From contig CAYGGC010000001.1 in the NCBI GenBank assembly GCA_964349465.1, positions 124,375 through 188,374 on the forward strand: a DNA stretch of 64,000 nucleotides, given 5' to 3'. A program made the translations under genes and the position numbers. Positions 3,446-34,100 of this stretch are shown here, in pieces; the stretch's first letter is position 1, and the number at the start of each line of letters is the position of its first letter. Below the pieces are notes generated by a model. It saw nothing but the letters and a program-made list of their open reading frames with translations, did not search any database and was not told where the DNA came from. Source of the DNA: an uncultured Gammaproteobacteria bacterium (GTDB lineage Bacteria; Patescibacteriota; Patescibacteriia; SBBC01; CAIJZX01).

Positions 3446-5146
3446 ATGTCAAAAGCTTCAGCTGACATGGAAAAAATCGTCAACTTAGCGAAACGCCGCG
3501 GGTTTGTTTTTCCGTCCAGTGAGATATATGGAGGTTTAGCTGGTTTTTGGGATTGGGGACCGCTTGGTGTTCTTCTAAAAAACAATATAAAACGAGAATG
3601 GTGGCGGACTTTTGTCCAAAAAAGGAGCGATATGGTTGGTATTGATGGCACAATAATTTCCGCACCCAAGGTTTGGATGGCAAGCGGGCATGTTGATACC
3701 TTTGCTGATTTTTTAGTTGATTGCCAAAACTGTAAACACAGATTTCGTGGTGATCATTTGATTGAGCAATATACTGAGCAAAGCATTGTAGATTTTGCAA
3801 TTGCTTATCTTAGCGATTGGATTGAGTCAATTAGCGAAAGATATGGTAATGCAATAGTTAAAAAAAAGATTTCTCTTGAAGACTTAAACATTAGGGTTGC
3901 TGAGTCAAGAAAAAATCTTCTCGAATCAGGTATTGATCCTGACGAGGTATTAGAGGAATCAAAAAAGAAAAAGAAATTGATAATAAAAAGTGCCTCTGAT
4001 CGTCAAGAAGACCTTTCTCTTGATGCGGAATTTGAAGCTTGGAAAAGGGTAAAATCAAACATAGGAGAATTTATTAATCATTACATATATTACTCCCAAA
4101 TTCCCTGTCCTTCATGCAAAAAAACTGGTGAGTTTACAAAAGCGAGAAAATTTAATTTAATGTTAAAAACCAATATTGGTCCCGTTGAAGACTCTAGTAG
4201 CACCGGGTATTTGCGTCCTGAAACCGCGCAAAGCATTTTCATTAACTTTGAAAATGTCCGTGAATCAACGAGGAAAAAGCTGCCATTTGGTATCGCCCAG
4301 ATCGGCAAAGCCTTCCGGAATGAAATCACGCCTGGAAATTTTGTGTTCCGCCAACGGGAATTCGAACAAATGGAAATCGAATATTTCGTACGGCCGGGCG
4401 ATGACGACGCGCATTTTTCCACCTGGGTTGAAATGTGTTATCAATGGTTCCTCTCTTTAGGACTGAAAGCCGAGCATCTGCGCAAGTTTGAACAGCCGGC
4501 CAGCGAGTTGGCGCATTACTCGAAAGCCACAACAGATATTGAATTCACCTTTCCAATTGAAAAGGGTTGGGGCGAATTAATGGGGATCGCGAATCGGACT
4601 GATTACGATTTGAAACAGCACGGGCAGCACGCGAAGGGGAGTCCCGAAGCTTTTGCGACGCCGATTGACGACGAAGGGAAAGAGAAAAAAGTCCCGTTTG
4701 TGATTGAGCCGTCGATGGGCGTTGATCGCGCGGCGCTGGCCTTTCTGCTCGATGCGTATACCATCATCGATGGTGGTCGGTCCACGACGACCGAAAGTAT
4801 TAAAGACGAAGAAGTGGTGCTCAAGTTGCACCCGCGTTTAGCGCCATACACCGTGGCGATTTTACCACTCTCAAAAAAGCCGGAGCTAACCGCGATCGCG
4901 GAACCGTTGCTGGCTGAGCTGCGAAAAACGTGGATGGTTGATTATGATCAAACTGGTTCGATTGGGAAGCGCTACCGACGTCAGGACGAAATTGGTACCC
5001 CGCTGTGCGTGACCGTTGATTTCGATACGATCGAAGGTGTGAAGCGCCCAAAGGGAACCGTCACCGTCCGTGATCGCGATACCATGGAACAACATAACGT
5101 CGCTATTGATGAACTTCCGGCCTACGTGGCGGAGCGTCTCCGCTAG
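3446..5146 (+). CDS. glyQS: Glycine--tRNA ligase, dimeric glyQS type.
   Basis: N-terminal MEKIVNLAKRRGFVFPSSEIYGG...WDWGPLG signature, class II motifs, paired CxxC knuckles, C-terminal anticodon-binding domain. The first ~800 bp are markedly AT-rich. Confidence 0.9.
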   Translation: MSKASADMEKIVNLAKRRGFVFPSSEIYGGLAGFWDWGPLGVLLKNNIKREWWRTFVQKRSDMVGIDGTIISAPKVWMASGHVDTFADFLVDCQNCKHRFRGDHLIEQYTEQSIVDFAIAYLSDWIESISERYGNAIVKKKISLEDLNIRVAESRKNLLESGIDPDEVLEESKKKKKLIIKSASDRQEDLSLDAEFEAWKRVKSNIGEFINHYIYYSQIPCPSCKKTGEFTKARKFNLMLKTNIGPVEDSSSTGYLRPETAQSIFINFENVRESTRKKLPFGIAQIGKAFRNEITPGNFVFRQREFEQMEIEYFVRPGDDDAHFSTWVEMCYQWFLSLGLKAEHLRKFEQPASELAHYSKATTDIEFTFPIEKGWGELMGIANRTDYDLKQHGQHAKGSPEAFATPIDDEGKEKKVPFVIEPSMGVDRAALAFLLDAYTIIDGGRSTTTESIKDEEVVLKLHPRLAPYTVAILPLSKKPELTAIAEPLLAELRKTWMVDYDQTGSIGKRYRRQDEIGTPLCVTVDFDTIEGVKRPKGTVTVRDRDTMEQHNVAIDELPAYVAERLR

Positions 5147-6824
5147 CTTTCTCTTGGCCGTAGGGTTGGCACTGCCGGCCCAGGCTCAAGGCTCGAATTG
5201 GACGATGTCGTTTTTTCGATCCGACATTTCTGTCCATGACGATGCAAGTATTACTGTCACCGAAACTATTCAGGCCGATTTTTCCGTCGCGAAACACGGT
5301 ATCTTCCGCAACATTCCCTGGCGATACACAACTGACGATGGGGGGACGATGCAGGTCCCGGTTCAGGTTACGCGAGTGGCTAGAAACGGGGAGTCTGAAC
5401 CGTACACAACCTCATACAGTGGTGACAATCTGGAAATAAAAATTGGTGACGCGGACACAACGATCACTGGTGAACAAACCTATACAATTGAGTATTCCGC
5501 CCAAGCGGCGGTGAACTTTTTTTCTGATCACGACGAGTTGTATTGGAACGCGACCGGACATGACTGGGAAGTGCCGCTCGGGGCGGTTGAGGTCTCCGTT
5601 CGACTTGATACGCTCGTTGCGAAAGATCAGCTTCAGGTTCGATGTTTGACTGGAGTCGTCGGCTCAACCGCATCGGACTGCGTGGCTACGACGGATGATT
5701 CCGCTGTTAGTGCAACAACCGTCGGACAACCGTTAACGGTGGTATTCGGTTGGCCGCCTGGCTTCGTGACGAAGCCGGAGAACTACGATCAGATCCGATC
5801 GACGGCCGGGACGACGTTAATTGAACGGATTTTCAAAACCCCAATTGTTTTTTGGGGCCTGAACGGAGCGTTCCCGTTGTTGGCGCTGATGGGGATGATG
5901 TGGCACTGGCGTCAACGCGGTCGCGATGTACCGGGCAAAGGGACCGTTATCGCGCAGTATGAGCCACCGTCGGGCCTGACGCCTGGGGAAATGGGTACCT
6001 TATACGACGAGCAGGCGAATCATCGCGACGTGATTGCGACGATGGTTGATCTCGCGGTCCGTGGTCACCTCACGATTACGCAGCTGACCACGAAGAAATT
6101 CCTTGGCACAAGCACTGACTACCAGCTCGACCAACTTCATCCGACGAAGACGACGCCTCTGAAGGATCATGAAAAGCAGATTTTGGAGGGACTGTTCAGT
6201 GGCGGAGAGCGTGTGACCTTATCAAAACTCAAAGGAACTTTTGCGGACGATGTAAAAAAAATACAGGGCTCGTTGTATGACCAGGTTCGTGATCAAGGAT
6301 ATTTTACGGCTAATCCAAATACGATCCGCACGCTCTATATTGTCGCCGGACTTATTGTGGCTGGGGCTGGTTTCTTCCTCGTACCCTTTTTGATCTTCGG
6401 GCCAATAGTGGTCGGCCTGGTAATTGCCGGAATAGGACCGTTCATGCCGAAGCGAACCGCCAAAGGGGCGGAAGCACTCTGGCACGCGAAAGGCTTTAAA
6501 TTGTTTCTCGAGAAGGCGGAAAAATATCGGATCAAGTGGCAAGAAAAAGAAAATATTTTTGAAACCTATTTGCCGTACGCGATGGCGTTCGGGGTGGCGG
6601 ATAAATGGACGAAAGCCTTCGAGGGTTTGCAAAGAGAATCGCCGGGCTGGTTTCATGGTAACGGGAACACGTTTAACACCATCATGTTTTGGTCCGCCTT
6701 GAATAGCTTTAGTACGGCCAGCGCGAAAAGCTTTGCCCCACCGGCGGCGAGTGGTGGGTCAGGCCTAGGCGGGGGCGGTTTTTCTGGCGGTGGCTTTGGC
6801 GGCGGCGGAGGCGGGTCATGGTAG
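5109..6824 (+). CDS. DUF2207-like membrane protein: signal peptide, extracellular domain, two TM helices and a Gly-rich C-terminal tail.
   Basis: Signal-peptide-like MNFRPTWRSVSASFLLAVGLALPAQA from the internal ATG at 5109 (ORF-track start 5070 overlaps glyS). C-terminal GGSGLGGGGFSGGGFGGGGGGSW is typical of DUF2207. Confidence 0.6.
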   Translation: MNFRPTWRSVSASFLLAVGLALPAQAQGSNWTMSFFRSDISVHDDASITVTETIQADFSVAKHGIFRNIPWRYTTDDGGTMQVPVQVTRVARNGESEPYTTSYSGDNLEIKIGDADTTITGEQTYTIEYSAQAAVNFFSDHDELYWNATGHDWEVPLGAVEVSVRLDTLVAKDQLQVRCLTGVVGSTASDCVATTDDSAVSATTVGQPLTVVFGWPPGFVTKPENYDQIRSTAGTTLIERIFKTPIVFWGLNGAFPLLALMGMMWHWRQRGRDVPGKGTVIAQYEPPSGLTPGEMGTLYDEQANHRDVIATMVDLAVRGHLTITQLTTKKFLGTSTDYQLDQLHPTKTTPLKDHEKQILEGLFSGGERVTLSKLKGTFADDVKKIQGSLYDQVRDQGYFTANPNTIRTLYIVAGLIVAGAGFFLVPFLIFGPIVVGLVIAGIGPFMPKRTAKGAEALWHAKGFKLFLEKAEKYRIKWQEKENIFETYLPYAMAFGVADKWTKAFEGLQRESPGWFHGNGNTFNTIMFWSALNSFSTASAKSFAPPAASGGSGLGGGGFSGGGFGGGGGGSW

Positions 6825-8437
6825 TGCGACTGCGGCGCCTCGTGCGGTGGTGGTATAAAACGGATTGGGCGATTGGGCTAACAGTATTTCTCATTGCTGT
6901 TATCCCACGGCTCATCCCTAGTGGGATGTTTATGGATCCTGATTCCGCGACCCTCTGGATTGGGCGGACGAGGGGTTTTCTCGAAGCCCTGCAGGGCGGG
7001 GATCCGAACCTCTTCGCGCCGAGTGTCCATCCCGGGGTGCCGCTGATGTGGCTCACGGCGGCGGGACTTGGTTGGTGGAAACTCGTCAGTGGATTTTTTT
7101 CTGGGCCCGACCAACTCGAAGCGTTTACCTGGATGGTAAAAGTGCCGCTGGCGCTGGTGACGAGTGGTCTAGCCGTTGGAGCGTGGCGCTACCTACGTCG
7201 GTGGGCTGCTCGACCCGTGGCGATACTAACGGCCGCGATCTTTGCGCTTGATCCGCTCTACCTTGTTTTTTCTCGGTATCAACATCTCGATGCTCTCGTC
7301 ACTGGTTTTGTGTTTGTTGGGCTCATCGCGACGTGGTCAGGTATTACTCAGCGACGATTCGGTGACCTGGCCGTCGGTTCCGCGCTCCTCGTGCTTGGAA
7401 TACTCACACGACTGAATGGCGGACTCGCGATTGTCGTCGCGGCAATTGGCCTGGCTTTTTTTTGGCCCCGTGGAGGCAAAAGAAAAGCGTGGTTGGTTTT
7501 TTGTCTATCCGGGAGCGTGACCGCCCTGATCGTTTGGCCGGCCATTCTCTTCGGACCGCAGGGGATTATCGATCTCCTCAACAATCGGATCGGCCTCGCG
7601 CTTGTCCCGCATGAAGTCGCGCCGAATGTCGATGTGATCCCGTGGGTTCGGGGCTTGCTGTATCCCTTGTTTATCCTGACTCGTGAATTTCCACTTCTAC
7701 TGGGCTTGGCCGCGGTTGGGGTAGTGAGACTCTGGCGAGGCCGAACCCCGTTCGACCGGTTTGGACAAGGACTAACTATTTTTTCGTTGGCCTATTACGC
7801 GATGCTTCTGGCCTTACCAAAAGACCTCGATCGGTACGCACTTCCACTTATCGGCCCGCTCGCACTATTTTCTGCACAAGGCATGTTGTGGATGTGGTCA
7901 AAACTGCCGACCAGGGTGTTTCGTTCCTTGTTCATTGGCCTGATGATCTTTCAACTCATACTGTTCTATCGGCTCGGTCCGTATTTCCAAACCTACCAGA
8001 ATTTTTTAACGAACCTTGCGCGCCAGACGCCGCTGGGGACCTCGCAGGCGCTTGATCCGGCCTGGGGCGAGGGAATTTCGGAGGCGGTCGCGTATCTCAA
8101 AAACGGTCAGCCTACGCTGCCGCCGACAGCGGCTTGGTTTGCTGGAGTAGCTTGTTATTACGGGAGCGCCCACAAGTCGACAGAGTATCCGTTTGTTGGT
8201 CGAGATCATTTGGCGTGCCCCCCCGGCTTACGTTGGTTAGCGACTCCGCAGGACGCTACCTACCTCATTCTTTCTCGCGATCAAATTGCGCAACGGATAT
8301 ATCCGAAACTCCTTGATGATATCGATCGGCTTGGTTGGCAACCGGAAAAAGTTATTTCGATCAACGGCGTCCCGCATGTGTATATCTATCGTAACCAAGG
8401 AGGTTTGGCTAAGCGGTACAAACTTACCGACCAATAA
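6818..8437 (+). CDS. GT-C fold glycosyltransferase, ArnT/PMT (family 39/83)-like integral membrane protein, paralog 1.
   Basis: Multi-TM N-terminal half with a periplasmic-loop DxD-like region. About 45% identity to the next gene. The start overlaps the upstream stop (ATGGTAG). Confidence 0.6.
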   Translation: MVVRLRRLVRWWYKTDWAIGLTVFLIAVIPRLIPSGMFMDPDSATLWIGRTRGFLEALQGGDPNLFAPSVHPGVPLMWLTAAGLGWWKLVSGFFSGPDQLEAFTWMVKVPLALVTSGLAVGAWRYLRRWAARPVAILTAAIFALDPLYLVFSRYQHLDALVTGFVFVGLIATWSGITQRRFGDLAVGSALLVLGILTRLNGGLAIVVAAIGLAFFWPRGGKRKAWLVFCLSGSVTALIVWPAILFGPQGIIDLLNNRIGLALVPHEVAPNVDVIPWVRGLLYPLFILTREFPLLLGLAAVGVVRLWRGRTPFDRFGQGLTIFSLAYYAMLLALPKDLDRYALPLIGPLALFSAQGMLWMWSKLPTRVFRSLFIGLMIFQLILFYRLGPYFQTYQNFLTNLARQTPLGTSQALDPAWGEGISEAVAYLKNGQPTLPPTAAWFAGVACYYGSAHKSTEYPFVGRDHLACPPGLRWLATPQDATYLILSRDQIAQRIYPKLLDDIDRLGWQPEKVISINGVPHVYIYRNQGGLAKRYKLTDQ

Positions 8438-8440
8438 GCT

Positions 8441-10105
8441 ATGGTTAACCGGGATTCAAACGTAGTCCGAATATTCTTGCGAGCGTGGTTATGGTGCTAT
8501 CGGTCGAATGTGCTACTTGGTCTAGCTGTTTTTTTATTCGCCCTAGTACCACGGGTCATGACACCGTCGGGTCAATTTCTTGATCCTGACTCGGCCGCAT
8601 ATTGGCTACCAAGAATAAAGGAGTTTCTAAACGGACTCCGCGGACAAGGGATCGAGCACTTAGCCCCGGCGAGCCATCCTGGTGTACCCCTGCTCTGGTT
8701 GACGGCGCCGGTTGAGTGGATTCATCAAACGTACCATCCGTGGCAAAAAATGGCTGATCCACTAGTTTCATACTTGGGAGCTTTAAAGTTCCCGATAGCG
8801 CTTGCTACAAGCGGCCTCGCGACTTTACTTTGGTCACTATTACGGCGAGTGGTCACACGATCATTGGCAATTACCACTGCTTTCGTCTTTGCGACCGATC
8901 CATTGTATTTGGTGTTTTCGCGATACCTGCACCTTGATGCATTGCTTTCAGGATTCCTAATTACCGGTCTAGTTAGTCTTTGGGTTGGACTGCGCTTGTC
9001 ACGTGATCGCTGGATATTTTTAGCAGGCTGCTTGCTAGCCCTGGCAACGTTAACGAGGATTAACGGGATCATTGGGGTTGTCTTCGCGCTTGCAACCATT
9101 GCGATTGTGTCGTTGAAGAATGTACATCTTTTTTGGCGGCGTAGTATCCTTTTTCTATGCGCCTGTTTTGTGACGATTGTGGTTGTATGGCCGCCGGTAG
9201 TGGTAGTACCGTCGCATGTTTTAGCGACGCAGAACCGTAACCTAGCCATGGCCCTGAGTGTTCACGAAGTTCCACCAGGGGTCGACATTATCCCTTGGAT
9301 ACGTGCTTTGCTGTACCCGATTTTTTTACTGACCCGCGAGTTTCCAATTTTCCTGGTCCTTGGACTGTATGGTGTAACGGCTGGCTGGAGACAACGATTG
9401 CGAACCGAATCGTTACTGGTACGGTTGCTATCTATATTTGCTGTAACATATTGGATATTTTTGTTGCTCGGGCCCAAAAAAATTGATCGATATATTCTTC
9501 CCGAGGTCGGGCCGTTAAGTTTTTTTATTGCGTTCGGTTTGCAAACGCTCTGGTCCAAGCTGGGTCAGTGGCCCCGGTCTAACTGGGTTCGTGGAATTGT
9601 ATGCTTTCTTGTGGCAGTCCAGTTGATCTTGTTCTGGAGATTAGCGCCCTATTTTCAAACCTATCAGAATGTATTCGCTGATGTATTGCGCCAAACCCCG
9701 CTACAGGCTTCGCAGGCCCTTGACCCGGCCTGGGGAGAAGGGATGGCGGAAGCGGTTGCTTATCTTAAAAATACCTCAACCGAGCTTCCTTCTACCGCTA
9801 GTTCGTTTGCTGGAGTACTTTGTGCGTTAGGGCAGACACATACGGTCGAGGCATACCCACTTTCGGCAACACCTCGTCTGTCATGTCCACCGGGATTGCG
9901 CTTGCTTGAAACACCGGCGGACGCTACCTACCTCATCCTTTCTCGCGATCAAATTGCGCAACGGATATATCCGAAACTCCTTGATGATATCGATCGGCTT
10001 GGTTGGCAACCGGAAAAAGTTATTTCGATCAACGGCGTTCCGTACATCTCTATCTACCGCAATCGCGGAGGTTTAGACGAGCACTATTCGCTGACAGGTC
10101 GATAG
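8441..10105 (+). CDS. GT-C fold glycosyltransferase, ArnT/PMT-like, paralog 2.
   Basis: Same architecture as 6818-8437. The C-terminal ~40 aa and ~125 bp are nearly identical to paralog 1. Confidence 0.6.
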   Translation: MVNRDSNVVRIFLRAWLWCYRSNVLLGLAVFLFALVPRVMTPSGQFLDPDSAAYWLPRIKEFLNGLRGQGIEHLAPASHPGVPLLWLTAPVEWIHQTYHPWQKMADPLVSYLGALKFPIALATSGLATLLWSLLRRVVTRSLAITTAFVFATDPLYLVFSRYLHLDALLSGFLITGLVSLWVGLRLSRDRWIFLAGCLLALATLTRINGIIGVVFALATIAIVSLKNVHLFWRRSILFLCACFVTIVVVWPPVVVVPSHVLATQNRNLAMALSVHEVPPGVDIIPWIRALLYPIFLLTREFPIFLVLGLYGVTAGWRQRLRTESLLVRLLSIFAVTYWIFLLLGPKKIDRYILPEVGPLSFFIAFGLQTLWSKLGQWPRSNWVRGIVCFLVAVQLILFWRLAPYFQTYQNVFADVLRQTPLQASQALDPAWGEGMAEAVAYLKNTSTELPSTASSFAGVLCALGQTHTVEAYPLSATPRLSCPPGLRLLETPADATYLILSRDQIAQRIYPKLLDDIDRLGWQPEKVISINGVPYISIYRNRGGLDEHYSLTGR

Positions 10106-10131
10106 GTTCTATGGTATGCTGATAACCATCT

Positions 10132-10815
10132 ATGGCTGAACTCCTTGACCCAAACGGAATCGTCCCGGTTCCGCCCAAACCAAAAATCCGTCCGATGACA
10201 CTGGTGATGCTTTTATTGTATCCGATAGTCCTGGGTGTTGGGACCGCGGTAGGGTTTGTCATTGGCGTCGCCCAAGGGAAAAAGGATACGACGACCCAGC
10301 AGAATCAGAATGTGACACCAATCAACACCTCGGTCATTCCGAGCGCGAATACCAACGTGGGGACGAATACCATCAACGCCAATACCAATGTCAGTAATGT
10401 TTTTCTGAACTCCAACAGCGCTTTGAGCGGGGGAGACTACTTGCAGCTTGATGCCGCCACGACCGCCAGCCTCCAACAACAGCAGCAGCGCGACGAAGCA
10501 CAATACGTCACAACCTCAGGAACGGTCACAGATCAGCTTCGTCAAAAAGATCTGATAGCTTTGAAGTACAACCTGAAAGCGTATTTTACTGTCAAAGGGA
10601 GTTACCCCTCAACCGGCGGTGCTCAGATCAAGCTCGATAAAACCGAAACGGATGTTTTTTATTCTGCCATGAAGACGTTTTATGGGGGGAGCTTTAATCA
10701 TCGGATCGACCCCGAGTCGCCGACCTATTACTATGGCTACACATCTGATGGCTCGACGTTTACTTTGACCTGCTACCTCGTTGGACCAAAGCAAGTCTTT
10801 ACGTTGACTCAATAA
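10132..10815 (+). CDS. Hypothetical membrane-anchored protein with an Asn/Thr/Gln-rich low-complexity linker and a C-terminal globular domain.
   Basis: N-terminal TM segment (LVMLLLYPIVLGVGTAVGFVIGV), N/T-rich repeats, C-terminal YYYGYTSDGSTFTLTCY. Confidence 0.5.
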   Translation: MAELLDPNGIVPVPPKPKIRPMTLVMLLLYPIVLGVGTAVGFVIGVAQGKKDTTTQQNQNVTPINTSVIPSANTNVGTNTINANTNVSNVFLNSNSALSGGDYLQLDAATTASLQQQQQRDEAQYVTTSGTVTDQLRQKDLIALKYNLKAYFTVKGSYPSTGGAQIKLDKTETDVFYSAMKTFYGGSFNHRIDPESPTYYYGYTSDGSTFTLTCYLVGPKQVFTLTQ

Positions 10816-19191: not shown

Positions 19192-20253
19192 ATGGACATT
19201 GCTGTCATTGCCCTGATCGTCGTTTTACTGGCCGTTGTAGGCGTGATTTTTTCGCGTCTCTCCAGTACGACGAAAATCCTTCAGGAACTGAAAGATCAGA
19301 AGGGGAATGACCAGGCCTCGATCCTCCTGAATCAAAATATTCAAGGCCTCCAGCAACGCCTCGACTCGCAAAACCAGAATCTCCAGTCGACCCTCCAGAA
19401 GCAATTTGGAGACAGCGCGAAAATTATTCAGGATGTGACCGAGCGCCTAACGAAGCTTGATGAGACGAACCGCCAAGTCGTCGGTTTTGCCGATCAGCTC
19501 AAACGCCTCCAAGATACGCTCAACAACCCGAAACAGCGCGGCGTCCTCGGTGAATATTACCTTGAGACGGTATTAAAAAATGTTCTGCCACCGAAGAACT
19601 ATAAACTCCAGTACAAATTTAAGGACGGAGAAATTGTCGATGCGGCGATTTTCATCCAAGATAAAATTATTCCGGTCGACGCGAAATTTTCCCTCGAAAA
19701 TTATAACCGCTTAGCGGAACTGACAACCGAATCGGATCGTGAACGGGTCGAAAAAGTCTTTAAGCAGGATTTAAAGAATCGCATCGACGAAACCTCGAAG
19801 TATATTCGGCCGGGTGAGAATACGATGGACTTTGCGTTCATGTTCATTCCGGCGGAAGGGATTTATTACGATTTGCTCGTCAATAAAGTTGGCGCGGCTG
19901 GCGTTTCGTCCCGTGACCTGATCGATTACGCCTTTAAGGAAAAGCACGTCATCATTGTTTCGCCGACGTCGTTCTTCGCGTATTTGCAAACAGTGCTGCA
20001 AGGCTTACGCGCAATGCAAATCGAAGAAGGGGCGAAAGAGATTCGGAAGAACGTTGAGGTTCTGGCCAAGCATCTACAATCTTATCAAGGTTATATGGAT
20101 AAGCTTGGCAACTCTCTGAATACGTCGATGAATCACTATGGCGCCGCCCAAAAAGCCTTTGAGCGGATTGATAAAGATGTCTTAAAGATTGCCGAGGCAG
20201 AAGTATCCGAATCAAAGCTGATTGAAAACAACATGGAAAATGAGCGATCCTAA
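19192..20253 (+). CDS. rmuC: DNA recombination protein RmuC.
   Basis: N-terminal TM segment, a long coiled-coil and a conserved C-terminal RmuC domain. Confidence 0.85.
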   Translation: MDIAVIALIVVLLAVVGVIFSRLSSTTKILQELKDQKGNDQASILLNQNIQGLQQRLDSQNQNLQSTLQKQFGDSAKIIQDVTERLTKLDETNRQVVGFADQLKRLQDTLNNPKQRGVLGEYYLETVLKNVLPPKNYKLQYKFKDGEIVDAAIFIQDKIIPVDAKFSLENYNRLAELTTESDRERVEKVFKQDLKNRIDETSKYIRPGENTMDFAFMFIPAEGIYYDLLVNKVGAAGVSSRDLIDYAFKEKHVIIVSPTSFFAYLQTVLQGLRAMQIEEGAKEIRKNVEVLAKHLQSYQGYMDKLGNSLNTSMNHYGAAQKAFERIDKDVLKIAEAEVSESKLIENNMENERS

Positions 20254-31127: not shown

Positions 31128-34100
31128 ATGGTAAAATCTCTGCCTATGCCCGGCGAAATTCCATCCCAGGTCAACCCCGAACAGCAAGCTGCTATTCACC
31201 ATGGCCAAGGCCCATTGTTAATTGTGGCGGGAGCAGGGACCGGAAAAACGACCGTCGTGACCGAGCGGATTGCCCATCTGATCATGGACCAGCAGGTCCC
31301 GTCGGATAATATCCTCGCCCTGACGTTTACCGACAAGGCCGCTGGAGAAATGCAGGATCGGGTTGAACGGATTTTACCGTTCGGGTATGTCGATTTATGG
31401 GTGATGACGTTCCATGGATTTGCCCAGCGACTTCTCAAAGATCACGCGCTCGACATCGGCCTGTCGAATGATTTTAAGCTTTTATCACAAACAGATCAGT
31501 GGCTACTCATTCGCGAACACCTCGATGAGTTCGACCTCGACCACTATCGGCCGCTCGGCAATCCGACCAAGTTTATTACGGCCCTGGTCAAGCATTTCTC
31601 TCGTCTGAAGGACGAAGATATTACGCCGGAGGAATACGTGAAATATGCAAAAGGGTTGGCGAAGGGCAAGGCCAAGAAATCCGATGAAGAGAAAGCCGAA
31701 GCTGAACGGACGATGGAACTTGCGAAGGCGTATTCGACGTATAACCAACTTTTACTCGACACCAATGCGCTTGATTTCGGTGATCTCATTGTCTATACCC
31801 TCCGCCTGCTTCGCGAACGCCCGGCGATTCTCAAGCACTACCAAAAACAATTTCAATATGTCCTCGTTGACGAATTCCAAGACACGAACTGGGCGCAATT
31901 TGAATTGATTAAGCGCTTGTCGGCGCCACGGAATAATTTGACCGTCGTCGGCGACGATGACCAGTCGATCTATAAATTCCGCGGCGCCTCGGTTTCGAAT
32001 ATTCTCGAATTCAAAAAAGATTTTCCTGACGCGGACGTCATTGTGCTAACGAAGAACTATCGAACCCGCCAATCCATTCTTGATCTTTCTTATGATTTTA
32101 TCCAGCACAATAATCCGGACCGTCTCGAAGCAAAAAAGGAAGCACTGGGTGGATTGCAGATTGTGAAGAAGCTTATGTCCCAGCGCGAGGGGAAAGGTGA
32201 GATCGGCTTAATCCACGTTGAGACGCAAGAGTCGGAAGCGCGAAGCGTTGCTGAAAAAATTGATGAGCTGAAAAAATCTAATCCGGAGTTGTCCTGGGAC
32301 GCGTTCTGCGTCCTCGTTCGGGCAAACGACCATGCCGAAATTTTCATTAACGAGTTTGAGCGGCGTGGTTGGCCGTATGTTTTTTTAGCCGCGCGCGGAT
32401 TATTCACCAAGCCGCTAGTGATTGATCTCCTGGCCTATTTGCGTTTGCTGGATAATTATCACGAAAGCGCCGCGCTCTATCGTGTTCTCGCGATGCCGAT
32501 CTGGGACATTGATCATGCGGATATTGTTGAAATCGCGTATCAGGCGAAGAAAAAAACCCAGTCGCTCTACGAAGCGATCAACGACGCTCCAGCCGGAATT
32601 TCTGAAGCGAGTCGGAAAGGGATTACCAAACTCCTGGGCCACATCGCGGCTCACTCACAATTGGCACTGGCCCAGCCGGTCGGCGAGGTGCTCTTACACT
32701 TTCTCAATGATTCTGGGTATTTGCAAGACATGACCCGGGAAGAAACCCTCCAGTCACAACAGCAATCAGCCATTCTCCGCCAACTGTTTAAGGTGATTGA
32801 AGCCTTCCAGCACGGGAATCCCGCGGTTGGTTCGAGTCACGCGACGGTAAAAAGTTTTTTGAAATATATTGAACATGTCACGGAGTCCGGTGATGCCGGA
32901 GCGCTTGAGCGAGATATGGAAGCTGGACCGGAGACGATGAAGATCATGACGGTCCACGCCGCCAAGGGCTTGGAGTTTCCGTACGTCTTTATAGGTAACG
33001 TCGTGGAACAGCGTTTTCCAGGCCAAGACCGCAAGGATCCGATTCCGGTCCCAGACGCCCTCATTCGAGAAATTTTGCCGCAAGGCGACGCCCATCTGCA
33101 GGAAGAGCGGCGACTGATGTATGTCGCGATTACTCGCGCCCGCGACGGTGTATTCTTTACCTTAGCCGAAGATTACGGCGGGACGCGGCGCAAGAAGCCC
33201 TCACCGTTTATCTATGAACTGCAACTGCTCGCGCCGCCGGTCAAAGCTGAAAAGAAACCGCCCCTGCCAGAGCGTTTGTTTACTCCCACGCCGACGCAGG
33301 TGAAGGAGTCGGCCGCCTATCAGCTCCGTGAAAAACACTATAGTTTCACGAAACTGTCGACCTATAATGATTGCCCGTGGAAATACCGCTATGCCTTCGT
33401 CCTGCAAGTACCGAAGCGGGGAAGTCATGTCCTCTCCTATGGCTCATCCATCCATAAAACGTTACAAAACTTTTTTTCACTCTGGAAACAGCGCCAGCAT
33501 GATGGTATGACCGAAAAAAATCCAGTCAATCTCGAAGAACTACTGACGATGTACCGCCAATCCTTCATCGAAGAATGGTACCAATCAAAAAAAATCCGGA
33601 ATGAGTATTACGCGAAAGGGGAGGCGGCGTTGAAAACATGGTATACGAAAACAGTTCAGGCTCCGCCCGACGTCCTGCGGCTTGAACAAGTCTTTAATTT
33701 GAAAGTCGACGAGTTTGTCGTGAATGGCGCGATCGATCGCATTGATCAAATTGGCGTTGATGAAAAAACGAAAAAACCACAAGTGAAAATTGTCGATTAC
33801 AAAACCGGGAAGGTCAAAGAGAAATTTGAAAAGGATGATAAATATCAGCTTTTGATTTATACATTAGCAGTGAAGGATCCAAATATTCTTGACGGCGAAG
33901 TCACGGAGTTGGAATATTATTTCGTCGATGAAAATGCATCGCGGACAATGGTGCCAACCGAAAAAGACGCGACTGCGGCGCTTGATTGGGTCCGGGCCAC
34001 GGTGAAAGGGATTCAATCCGGTGATTTCCGGGCGACGCCGAACGAGATGATTTGCAAATTCTGCGACTATAAGGAAATTTGCGAGTTTCGAGCAATATAA
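31128..34100 (+). CDS. UvrD/PcrA-family superfamily-1 helicase fused to a C-terminal Cas4/AddB-like PD-(D/E)xK nuclease with a Cys cluster.
   Basis: AGAGTGKTT Walker A and UvrD motifs. C-terminal VDYKTGK, QLLIYTL and CKFCDYKEIC, plus an upstream CPW Cys (4Cys Fe-S nuclease pattern). Confidence 0.85.
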   Translation: MVKSLPMPGEIPSQVNPEQQAAIHHGQGPLLIVAGAGTGKTTVVTERIAHLIMDQQVPSDNILALTFTDKAAGEMQDRVERILPFGYVDLWVMTFHGFAQRLLKDHALDIGLSNDFKLLSQTDQWLLIREHLDEFDLDHYRPLGNPTKFITALVKHFSRLKDEDITPEEYVKYAKGLAKGKAKKSDEEKAEAERTMELAKAYSTYNQLLLDTNALDFGDLIVYTLRLLRERPAILKHYQKQFQYVLVDEFQDTNWAQFELIKRLSAPRNNLTVVGDDDQSIYKFRGASVSNILEFKKDFPDADVIVLTKNYRTRQSILDLSYDFIQHNNPDRLEAKKEALGGLQIVKKLMSQREGKGEIGLIHVETQESEARSVAEKIDELKKSNPELSWDAFCVLVRANDHAEIFINEFERRGWPYVFLAARGLFTKPLVIDLLAYLRLLDNYHESAALYRVLAMPIWDIDHADIVEIAYQAKKKTQSLYEAINDAPAGISEASRKGITKLLGHIAAHSQLALAQPVGEVLLHFLNDSGYLQDMTREETLQSQQQSAILRQLFKVIEAFQHGNPAVGSSHATVKSFLKYIEHVTESGDAGALERDMEAGPETMKIMTVHAAKGLEFPYVFIGNVVEQRFPGQDRKDPIPVPDALIREILPQGDAHLQEERRLMYVAITRARDGVFFTLAEDYGGTRRKKPSPFIYELQLLAPPVKAEKKPPLPERLFTPTPTQVKESAAYQLREKHYSFTKLSTYNDCPWKYRYAFVLQVPKRGSHVLSYGSSIHKTLQNFFSLWKQRQHDGMTEKNPVNLEELLTMYRQSFIEEWYQSKKIRNEYYAKGEAALKTWYTKTVQAPPDVLRLEQVFNLKVDEFVVNGAIDRIDQIGVDEKTKKPQVKIVDYKTGKVKEKFEKDDKYQLLIYTLAVKDPNILDGEVTELEYYFVDENASRTMVPTEKDATAALDWVRATVKGIQSGDFRATPNEMICKFCDYKEICEFRAI

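Follow-up and report, generated by a model that had tools for sequence, protein, structure and literature searches.

A near-identical tract shared by diverged tandem GT-C glycosyltransferase genes of an uncultured Patescibacteria bacterium appears to mark a recombination joint

The 64-kb window analyzed here, a stretch of contig CAYGGC010000001.1 read on its forward strand, contains two complete open reading frames (ORFs), g1 and g2, which lie in tandem with a 3-nt spacer (GCT) between them and encode putative glycosyltransferases (GTs) of the GT-C fold. Near their 3' ends the two genes carry a 124-nt tract, hereafter T, that is nearly identical in sequence despite the great divergence of the genes around it, and we surmise that T is the joint of a recombination event. 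Because the nearest named relatives of its GyrB are Candidatus Kerfeldbacteria and other Patescibacteria (72-80% identity), the host is an uncultured bacterium of the candidate phyla radiation. The features of the locus, all on the + strand, are given below with reference to related loci that harbor the same GT slot (L001-L008 and L169-L171); among these, L169, the closest relative, is a single 3.2-kb Logan contig from sample SRR14092363.

5070-6824, + strand: DUF2207 membrane protein (Pfam DUF2207 and DUF2207_C), flanking the GT slot on the left and conserved by synteny
6818-8437, + strand: g1, putative GT-C fold glycosyltransferase of 539 amino acids, complete ORF, with a body in the clade of L169, L002, L006 and L170
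8251-8374, + strand: tract copy 1, within g1 (amino acids 478-519), native g1-type sequence, differing from copy 2 at 2 of 124 nt
8375-8437, + strand: g1 tail (last 20 codons and stop), judging from tail identities not the vertical orthologue of the L169 and L002 tails
8375-10042 (equivalently 8251-9918), + strand: 1,668-bp block missing from L169 in the comparison with that locus, comprising the g1 tail, GCT, the g2 body and copy 2
8441-10105, + strand: g2, putative GT-C fold glycosyltransferase of 554 amino acids, complete ORF, with a body in the clade of L001
9919-10042, + strand: tract copy 2, within g2 (amino acids 493-534), by the tract tree g1-type sequence within a g2-type gene
10043-10131, + strand: g2 tail and 26-nt spacer, an L169-like (putatively ancestral-locus) 3' flank with a promoter-like site for the downstream gene
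10132-10815, + strand: p227, 227 amino acids, flanking the GT slot on the right and conserved by synteny in all relatives

The two copies of T (8251-8374 and 9919-10042) lie 1,668 nt apart and differ at two positions only (8269 T/C and 8371 C/T), both of which are synonymous third positions, with a longest exact run of 101 nt (8270-8370 = 9938-10038). Each copy ends 63 nt ahead of the stop codon of its gene and is followed by a tail that is merely 59% identical to its counterpart; the edges of the tract are sharp, with 5 of 11 bases differing on the left and 5 of 11 on the right. Outside T, the DNA of g1 and g2 is 52.6% identical, and a codon-aware alignment gives a protein identity of 46%, vs. 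52% over the whole alignment. An earlier note on this DNA had described a near-identical tract in diverged tandem GT genes, and the pairwise DNA alignment that it called for bears this out, with divergence that is far from uniform and a single sharp-edged tract; the peptide that it quoted is also correct. Its coordinates (8252-8377 and 9920-10045) overlap T but overshoot it by 3 nt, bringing in 4 mismatches rather than two, its placement of the tract in the last ~125 bp of the genes does not hold given the 63 nt that follow in each copy, and its figure of ~45% protein identity fits the region outside T but not the whole alignment.

The near-identity of T extends to sites on which the protein makes no demand. 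Where g1 and g2 encode the same amino acid, they use the same codon at 39 of 41 sites in the tract vs. 89 of 232 outside, and since the identical fraction of degenerate codons outside T (0.35) is about that expected from codon usage alone (0.31), the synonymous sites of g1 and g2 are saturated there. Shuffling the codons 5,000 times gave no run longer than 44 nt with 2 mismatches or fewer, vs. 124 nt observed. These data support recombination as the source of the identity, rather than protein-level selection or chance, with selection on the protein excluded because the identity reaches into synonymous sites. T also overlaps the most conserved 41-residue window of the family, as defined in single-copy orthologues, and would thus be the likeliest place for recombination between genes so diverged. 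There is no third copy of T in the window, and a 63-nt piece of the tract found no exact match in GTDB genome contigs. We also considered older, decayed conversion elsewhere in g1 and g2 and discarded it, as the next exact runs, of 18 nt (adjoining T), 13 and 11 nt, are in the permutation range.

Neighbor-joining trees with bootstraps point to where the sequence of T came from. Outside the tract, g1 groups with L169, L002, L006 and L170 (100% bootstrap), with g1 and L169 paired at 100%, whereas g2 pairs with L001 (100%). In the tree of the tract itself, g1 joins g2 at 100%, with L169 as their sister at 82%. In the comparison with orthologues proposed in the earlier note, the tract thus clusters by genome and the bodies by orthologue. 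L169 is a close orthologue of g1 (86% in amino acids, 82% in nucleotides), and the g1 tract is as close to it (81.7%) as is the rest of g1 (82.0%). Because the tract has just the L169 identity of its g1 background, it is native g1-type sequence that is now also in g2, showing movement from g1-type DNA into g2. Two other indicators of direction had been tried and were superseded by L169: composition, in which the G+C content at third codon positions of the tract (0.48) was g2-like and the codon-usage log-likelihood ratio (+4.9) was g1-like, and distant orthologues, in which the tract was 73% identical to L002 and 67% to L001, in conflict with the third-position hint. Tandem duplication followed by divergence was rejected as the origin of the pair, the g2 body grouping with L001 outside the g1 clade. 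Rather than diverged tandem paralogs, as the earlier note had them, g1 and g2 represent two old lineages, each of which occupies the same slot singly in other genomes.

L169 suggests that T is more than a patch of shared sequence. Its gene order is DUF2207, a g1-like body, T, a tail, a 26-nt spacer and p227, with no second GT, and its p227 is identical to that of the window at 79 of 82 residues. The L169 tail, however, is nearer to the tail of g2 (46/63 nt, 16/20 amino acids, with homologous spacers behind it) vs. that of g1 (40/63 nt, 12/20 amino acids). At informative sites, where g1 and g2 differ, L169 sides with g1 over g2 by 530:67 in the body and by 60:8 in the last 60 codons before T, vs. 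7:14 in the tail, and this switch in affinity across T is significant for the last 60 codons vs. the tail (Fisher p = 2e-6) as well as for the whole body vs. the tail (p = 8e-9). The match to the g1 tail falls short of the 82% expected for an orthologue of this closeness (P = 4e-4) and that to the g2 tail exceeds the ~58% expected (P = 0.01), with g2-matching sites distributed along the whole L169 tail and not just at the -35 element of the promoter-like site described below. L169 thus appears to read as g1 body, T, g2-like tail, spacer and p227; being g1-like upstream of T and g2-like downstream, it suggests that the two copies of T are direct repeats that exactly bound a 1,668-bp gain or loss relative to L169. 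Had g1-type sequence simply been patched into g2, both tails would be native to their own genes, which is not what we found, with the caveat that this comparison is of a 63-nt tail in one relative. Of the recent non-reciprocal recombination put forward in the earlier note, recombination and the g1-type sequence in both copies therefore stand, but an isolated patch does not, since T coincides with a breakpoint relative to L169 and is probably a recombination joint.

The slot in which g1 and g2 reside is itself unusually variable. The family is small, with 9 matches to a g2 query and 12 to a g1 query among 5.8 billion clusters, and its relatives have a common gene order of GlyRS, DUF2207, GT, p227, M16 peptidase, AI-2E and TP-methylase; the exception is L007, in which the GT directly follows GlyRS without a DUF2207 gene. 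A single GT fills the slot in every relative but L171, where there are two (the gene upstream of the GT in L001 is the DUF2207 gene and not a second GT). The flanks are well conserved against L001-L003 (82-92% amino acid identity for M16, 83-91% for AI-2E) while the slot GTs are merely 43-64% identical across relatives, and the type of GT does not track the tree of flanking genes: L003 is the closest by M16 (92%) and has the most different GT (~43%). The GT slot is therefore hypervariable, with gene types numbering three or more, and the failure of these types to follow flanking-gene relationships suggests allele replacement at a surface-glycan locus. The L171 pair (4091-7353, 2-nt spacer, 42% amino acid identity) is a second, independent tandem in the same slot, with both GTs outside the g1 and g2 clades; it has no homogenized tract, its longest exact run being 15 nt. 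Profile scans of GTDB and JGI returned distant relatives only (≤36% identical), of no use for dating the event, and showed clustered GT-C paralogs to be common.

The explanation that we favor, and hold with moderate confidence, is that the direct repeats stem from non-allelic homologous recombination (NAHR) between anciently diverged GT-C genes at this hypervariable locus, with the block gained in the lineage of the window. The ancestor would have had one gene as in L169, namely g1 body, T, tail, spacer and p227, into which a g2-type body, with a foreign tail ahead of it, would have been added by recombination inside T; the resident g1-type T would then have been copied to both sides via gap repair or gene conversion. 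The outcome would be a g1 composed of body 1, T and the foreign tail, and a g2 composed of body 2, T and the ancestral tail. The donor probably had a tandem pair already, because the family includes tandem pairs whose spacers are 2-3 nt long (L171). Gain is favored over loss by the match between the L169 and L002 tails, by the divergent tail of g1 and by the nesting of window g1 and L169 among single-copy genes. In particular, the L169 and L002 tails are 72% identical, above the 61% identity of their bodies, and for this reason the L169 tail is likely native to the g1 clade and its arrangement ancestral; the tail of window g1 is 53% identical to that of L002. Whichever way the block went, the last homogenization is much younger than the split between window and L169, because the two window copies differ at 2 of 124 sites (1.6%) vs. 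18% between window and L169 in T.

Several points weigh against this explanation. A crossover within a T that was originally ~65-70% identical would yield hybrids, and not two fully g1-type copies, so that either an extra homogenizing step or junctions located at the edges must be assumed. The polarity, i.e., gain in the window vs. loss in L169, is read from a tail of 63 nt and from a single Logan contig of 3.2 kb; at 7:14, the signal of that tail is less clean than that of the body, the g1 tail is 55% identical to L001 and 67% to L003 and is not assignable to a clade, and tails of 63 nt carry too little signal for placement in a clade from distant relatives. No donor turned up among the 5.8 billion clusters, in which the closest g2-type gene is 59% identical. 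The window copies are known from assembled contigs alone, and recA was not seen in the 64-kb window, which was only partly scanned beyond the adjacent genes.

The most serious rival, which we nevertheless regard as unlikely, is loss: the ancestor of window and L169 would have had the tandem with a homogenized T, L169 would be a loop-out product, and T in the window would have been re-converted repeatedly. The structure of L169 is precisely what a deletion between the T repeats would leave, and a direct repeat of 101-124 nt is ample for RecA-dependent deletion. The body divergences (58% amino acid identity for g2 and L001, 62% for g1 and L002) also scale roughly with those of M16 (82% and 85%), as would be expected if both genes descended vertically. 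With an old tandem, however, the nesting of window g1 and L169 among the single-copy L002, L006 and L170 would call for several parallel losses, a tail that is more conserved than the body between L169 and L002 looks native to the g1 clade, and copies 1.6% apart when L169 is 18% away would require continuous re-homogenization. Also counting against loss, the clusters searched contained no g2-type gene closer than 59%.

A simpler event, in which a whole g2 gene lay between g1 and the spacer, 124 nt of g1 later overwrote the homologous stretch of g2, both tails are native and the likeness between the L169 and g2 tails is noise or a constraint from the p227 promoter, seems to us rather improbable. 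The sharp boundaries on both sides and the g1-type sequence in both copies are what a conversion patch would leave, the tail is merely 63 nt long, and some convergence is to be expected, since the GT tail next to p227, whichever gene it belongs to, contains the -35 element of the promoter-like site for p227. Short conversion tracts are, moreover, common in bacteria, for example between PE/PPE paralogs of M. tuberculosis (PMC12046097). Against a patch stand the deficit of L169 matches to the g1 tail and the excess to the g2 tail, together with the switch at informative sites across T and the spread of g2-matching sites over the whole tail, all given above.

That an assembly or polishing artefact, such as a repeat collapsed or skipped in a mixed population, created the tract identity, the tandem or the single copy in L169 is very unlikely. 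All sequences here are from metagenome assemblies and L169 is one 3.2-kb Logan contig; Logan contigs are built with short k-mers, by which a repeat-bounded loop could be skipped. However, an ENA MEGAHIT contig (k141_515615, 7,148 bp) is 100% identical to window 5441-10469, with both copies and both mismatches, and as its k of 141 exceeds the 124-nt tract, read k-mers would have bridged each copy to unique flanks. In addition, the junction of g1 stop, GCT and g2 start has no k-mers in common with the rest of the locus, an assembler could not create 98% identity from sequences ~65% identical, and T in L169 has at most 17 exact nt in common with T in the window, for which reason L169 is taken to be a separate genome. 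The assembly hazard raised in the earlier note is thus small.

The earlier note had also offered a constraint acting on the DNA; such a functional element, be it an RNA structure, a regulatory site or a small overlapping gene, held identical by selection is rejected on present sequence comparisons and carries hardly any weight with us, since the location of both copies 63 nt from the end of their genes and the presence of mechanically called small ORFs over the tract are offset by orthologues whose tracts are 51-81% identical and vary freely at synonymous sites, by the lack of such identity in the L171 pair, by unremarkable RNA folding of the tract on either strand (z-scores 0.03, 0.59 and 0.23), by an Rfam search that had no family match in the tract and found only a distant tRNA, and by the absence of promoter- or terminator-like sites, or anything in the small-ORF listing, within it. 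A cassette of the integron or shufflon type was discarded as well: the adjacent genes (DUF2207, p227, M16 peptidase, AI-2E) include no integrase or invertase, the rest of the window having been partly scanned, and the tract gave no structural signal.

The T repeat is itself a substrate for a RecA-type loop-out, which would delete the g2 body and leave an L169-like fusion gene. A bolder extension, which we consider improbable, is that the conserved C-terminal segment serves as a shared recombination handle in these Patescibacteria and that, by ordinary homologous recombination, GT-C bodies are gained, lost or exchanged through it as 1.7-kb cassettes at a hypervariable locus for glycosylation of the cell surface. 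If so, the window would show two cassettes and L169 one, a 1,668-bp circular intermediate would be possible, and such cassette shuffling could diversify surface glycans for host attachment or phage evasion.

The process proposed has close parallels. As in ectopic gene conversion or NAHR between bacterial paralogs, seen also in the tuf genes and rRNA operons, there is an exact tract in diverged paralogs, a non-reciprocal transfer, a mosaic gene and phylogenetic incongruence. In contrast to the usual case, the window genes are saturated at synonymous sites (~53% nucleotide identity), far under the identity usually thought necessary, and, unlike the usual conversion patch, the tract falls at the edge of a 1,668-bp indel relative to L169, as would a crossover joint. 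A second parallel is the DH-DC model of duplicative horizontal transfer followed by gene conversion in plant mitochondrial genes (Hao and Palmer 2011, PMC3337133). Similar to that model, a foreign second copy would have been added and the native and foreign copies would have exchanged short segments to give mosaic genes; in contrast to it, the window copies are adjacent, bacterial and joined by a single tract, and the horizontal origin of g2 is inferred. At loci of the O-antigen or capsule type, divergent alleles are swapped between conserved flanks, and the GT slot is comparable in its conserved flanks and in its three or more types that stray from the flanking-gene tree. The variable unit here is, however, a single GT-C gene and not a multigene cluster. 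Finally, 124-nt direct repeats around a block, with L169 as the exact excised state, are reminiscent of loop-out deletion or Campbell-type integration, but contigs, the only material here, reveal no circular intermediate, recombinase or population heterogeneity.

Short tracts of this kind are not confined to the window. Among distant loci, 28 have at least two non-overlapping GT-like matches, a few of which look like split matches to one gene. L073 (4244-10779; Saccharibacteria metagenome-assembled genome contig CAZYLA010000024.1), has four consecutive GT-C genes, of which the non-adjacent paralogs at 4244-5989 and 7565-9283 (61% protein and 67% DNA identity) have exact tracts of 114 nt (5592-5705 = 8865-8978), 49 nt (5004-5052 = 8325-8373) and 33 nt in common, with a permutation maximum of 44. 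Short recombination tracts between clustered GT-C genes thus recur independently; under the improbable reading of cassette shuffling, they hint that such shuffling may be widespread in the Patescibacteria group. At another locus, L150 (7282-12033), a 2,376-bp tandem duplication with 99.9% identity lies directly 3' of a GT-C gene and reflects either recent duplication or an artefact of assembly.

No new machinery is required for any of this: the process is a known one, unusual in the divergence of the genes and in having its repeat at a cassette-sized indel, and current understanding of recombination is unchanged by this locus. Its value lies in being a natural case of textbook quality, in which saturated paralogs (~53% identical) would have exchanged or shared a short stretch from the best-conserved part of the protein. 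A mosaic of this kind would distort phylogenies and selection tests on g1 and g2, and the repeat leaves the locus deletion-prone. The work also brings out a hypervariable slot for one GT-C gene, set between conserved genes, in a Kerfeldbacteria-like lineage of Patescibacteria; three or more gene types occupy this slot, and the tandem state is found in it twice, independently. Cell-surface variation in episymbiotic uncultured Patescibacteria is poorly understood, and GT loci such as this one are candidate determinants of host or phage interaction.

As for the enzymes themselves, Pfam PMT_2 matches g2 at 29.7 bits (cutoff 26.1) and g1 at 24 bits, just below the cutoff, an NCBIfam search gave no match above cutoff for the GT proteins, and a sequence search of the PDB yielded only Pmt1, at E = 0.0086. 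An AlphaFold2 model of g2, built on an 8-member family alignment (predicted local distance difference test 79, predicted template-modeling score 0.83), has as its top 23 Foldseek matches in the PDB STT3, AglB, ArnT, AftA, ALG9, PglB and Pmt4 (probability 1.0, template-modeling scores 0.40-0.50). Because these best matches are all GT-C enzymes, the model supports a GT-C fold, in keeping with ~10 hydrophobic segments that form a multi-helix membrane domain ahead of a soluble domain. The narrower ArnT/PMT-like label of the earlier note is not established, since the fold matches do not favor ArnT or PMT over STT3 or AglB. The tract portion of g2 (493-534) is modeled as a beta-alpha-alpha-beta unit of the C-terminal soluble domain (strand 497-501, helices 502-506 and 511-519, strand 524-530). 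In GT-C enzymes, the first extracytoplasmic loop is expected to carry an acidic residue that is conserved; Asp50 of a DPDS motif, invariant in 8 of 8 aligned members, may correspond to it.

Downstream of the GT genes, p227 has no family match in Pfam or NCBIfam. Ahead of it, at 10091-10120, is a promoter-like site (CTGACA-18-TATGCT, with a TG upstream), and an extended -10-like motif (TGnTATGCT, TGCTATACT or GGTATAAT) is conserved in every lineage, 5-30 nt ahead of the start codon of p227. The -35 (CTGACA) of the window site falls within the GT tail, and for this reason the final codons of the GT that precedes p227 may double as the p227 promoter. With the exception of this promoter-like site, the closely packed, same-strand genes from GlyRS to TP-methylase look like one transcription unit.

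Elsewhere in the window, an AddA-type helicase-nuclease (UvrD and PD-(D/E)XK domains) and RmuC are encoded at 31128-34100 and 19192-20253, from which it appears that part of a homologous-recombination toolkit is present. On the left of the GT slot, the predicted DUF2207 ORF overlaps the start of g1 by 7 nt (6818-6824) and the end of GlyRS by 77 nt (5070-5146), and because of the latter overlap its GTG start is probably called too early. GlyRS itself (3446-5146) has 566 amino acids here vs. 436-453 in most relatives and 501 in L171, with a tblastn coverage of only ~60%; the extra part (about 3600-4200) is a Lys/Glu-rich insert that coincides with a G+C content of 32-40%, vs. ~51% elsewhere.

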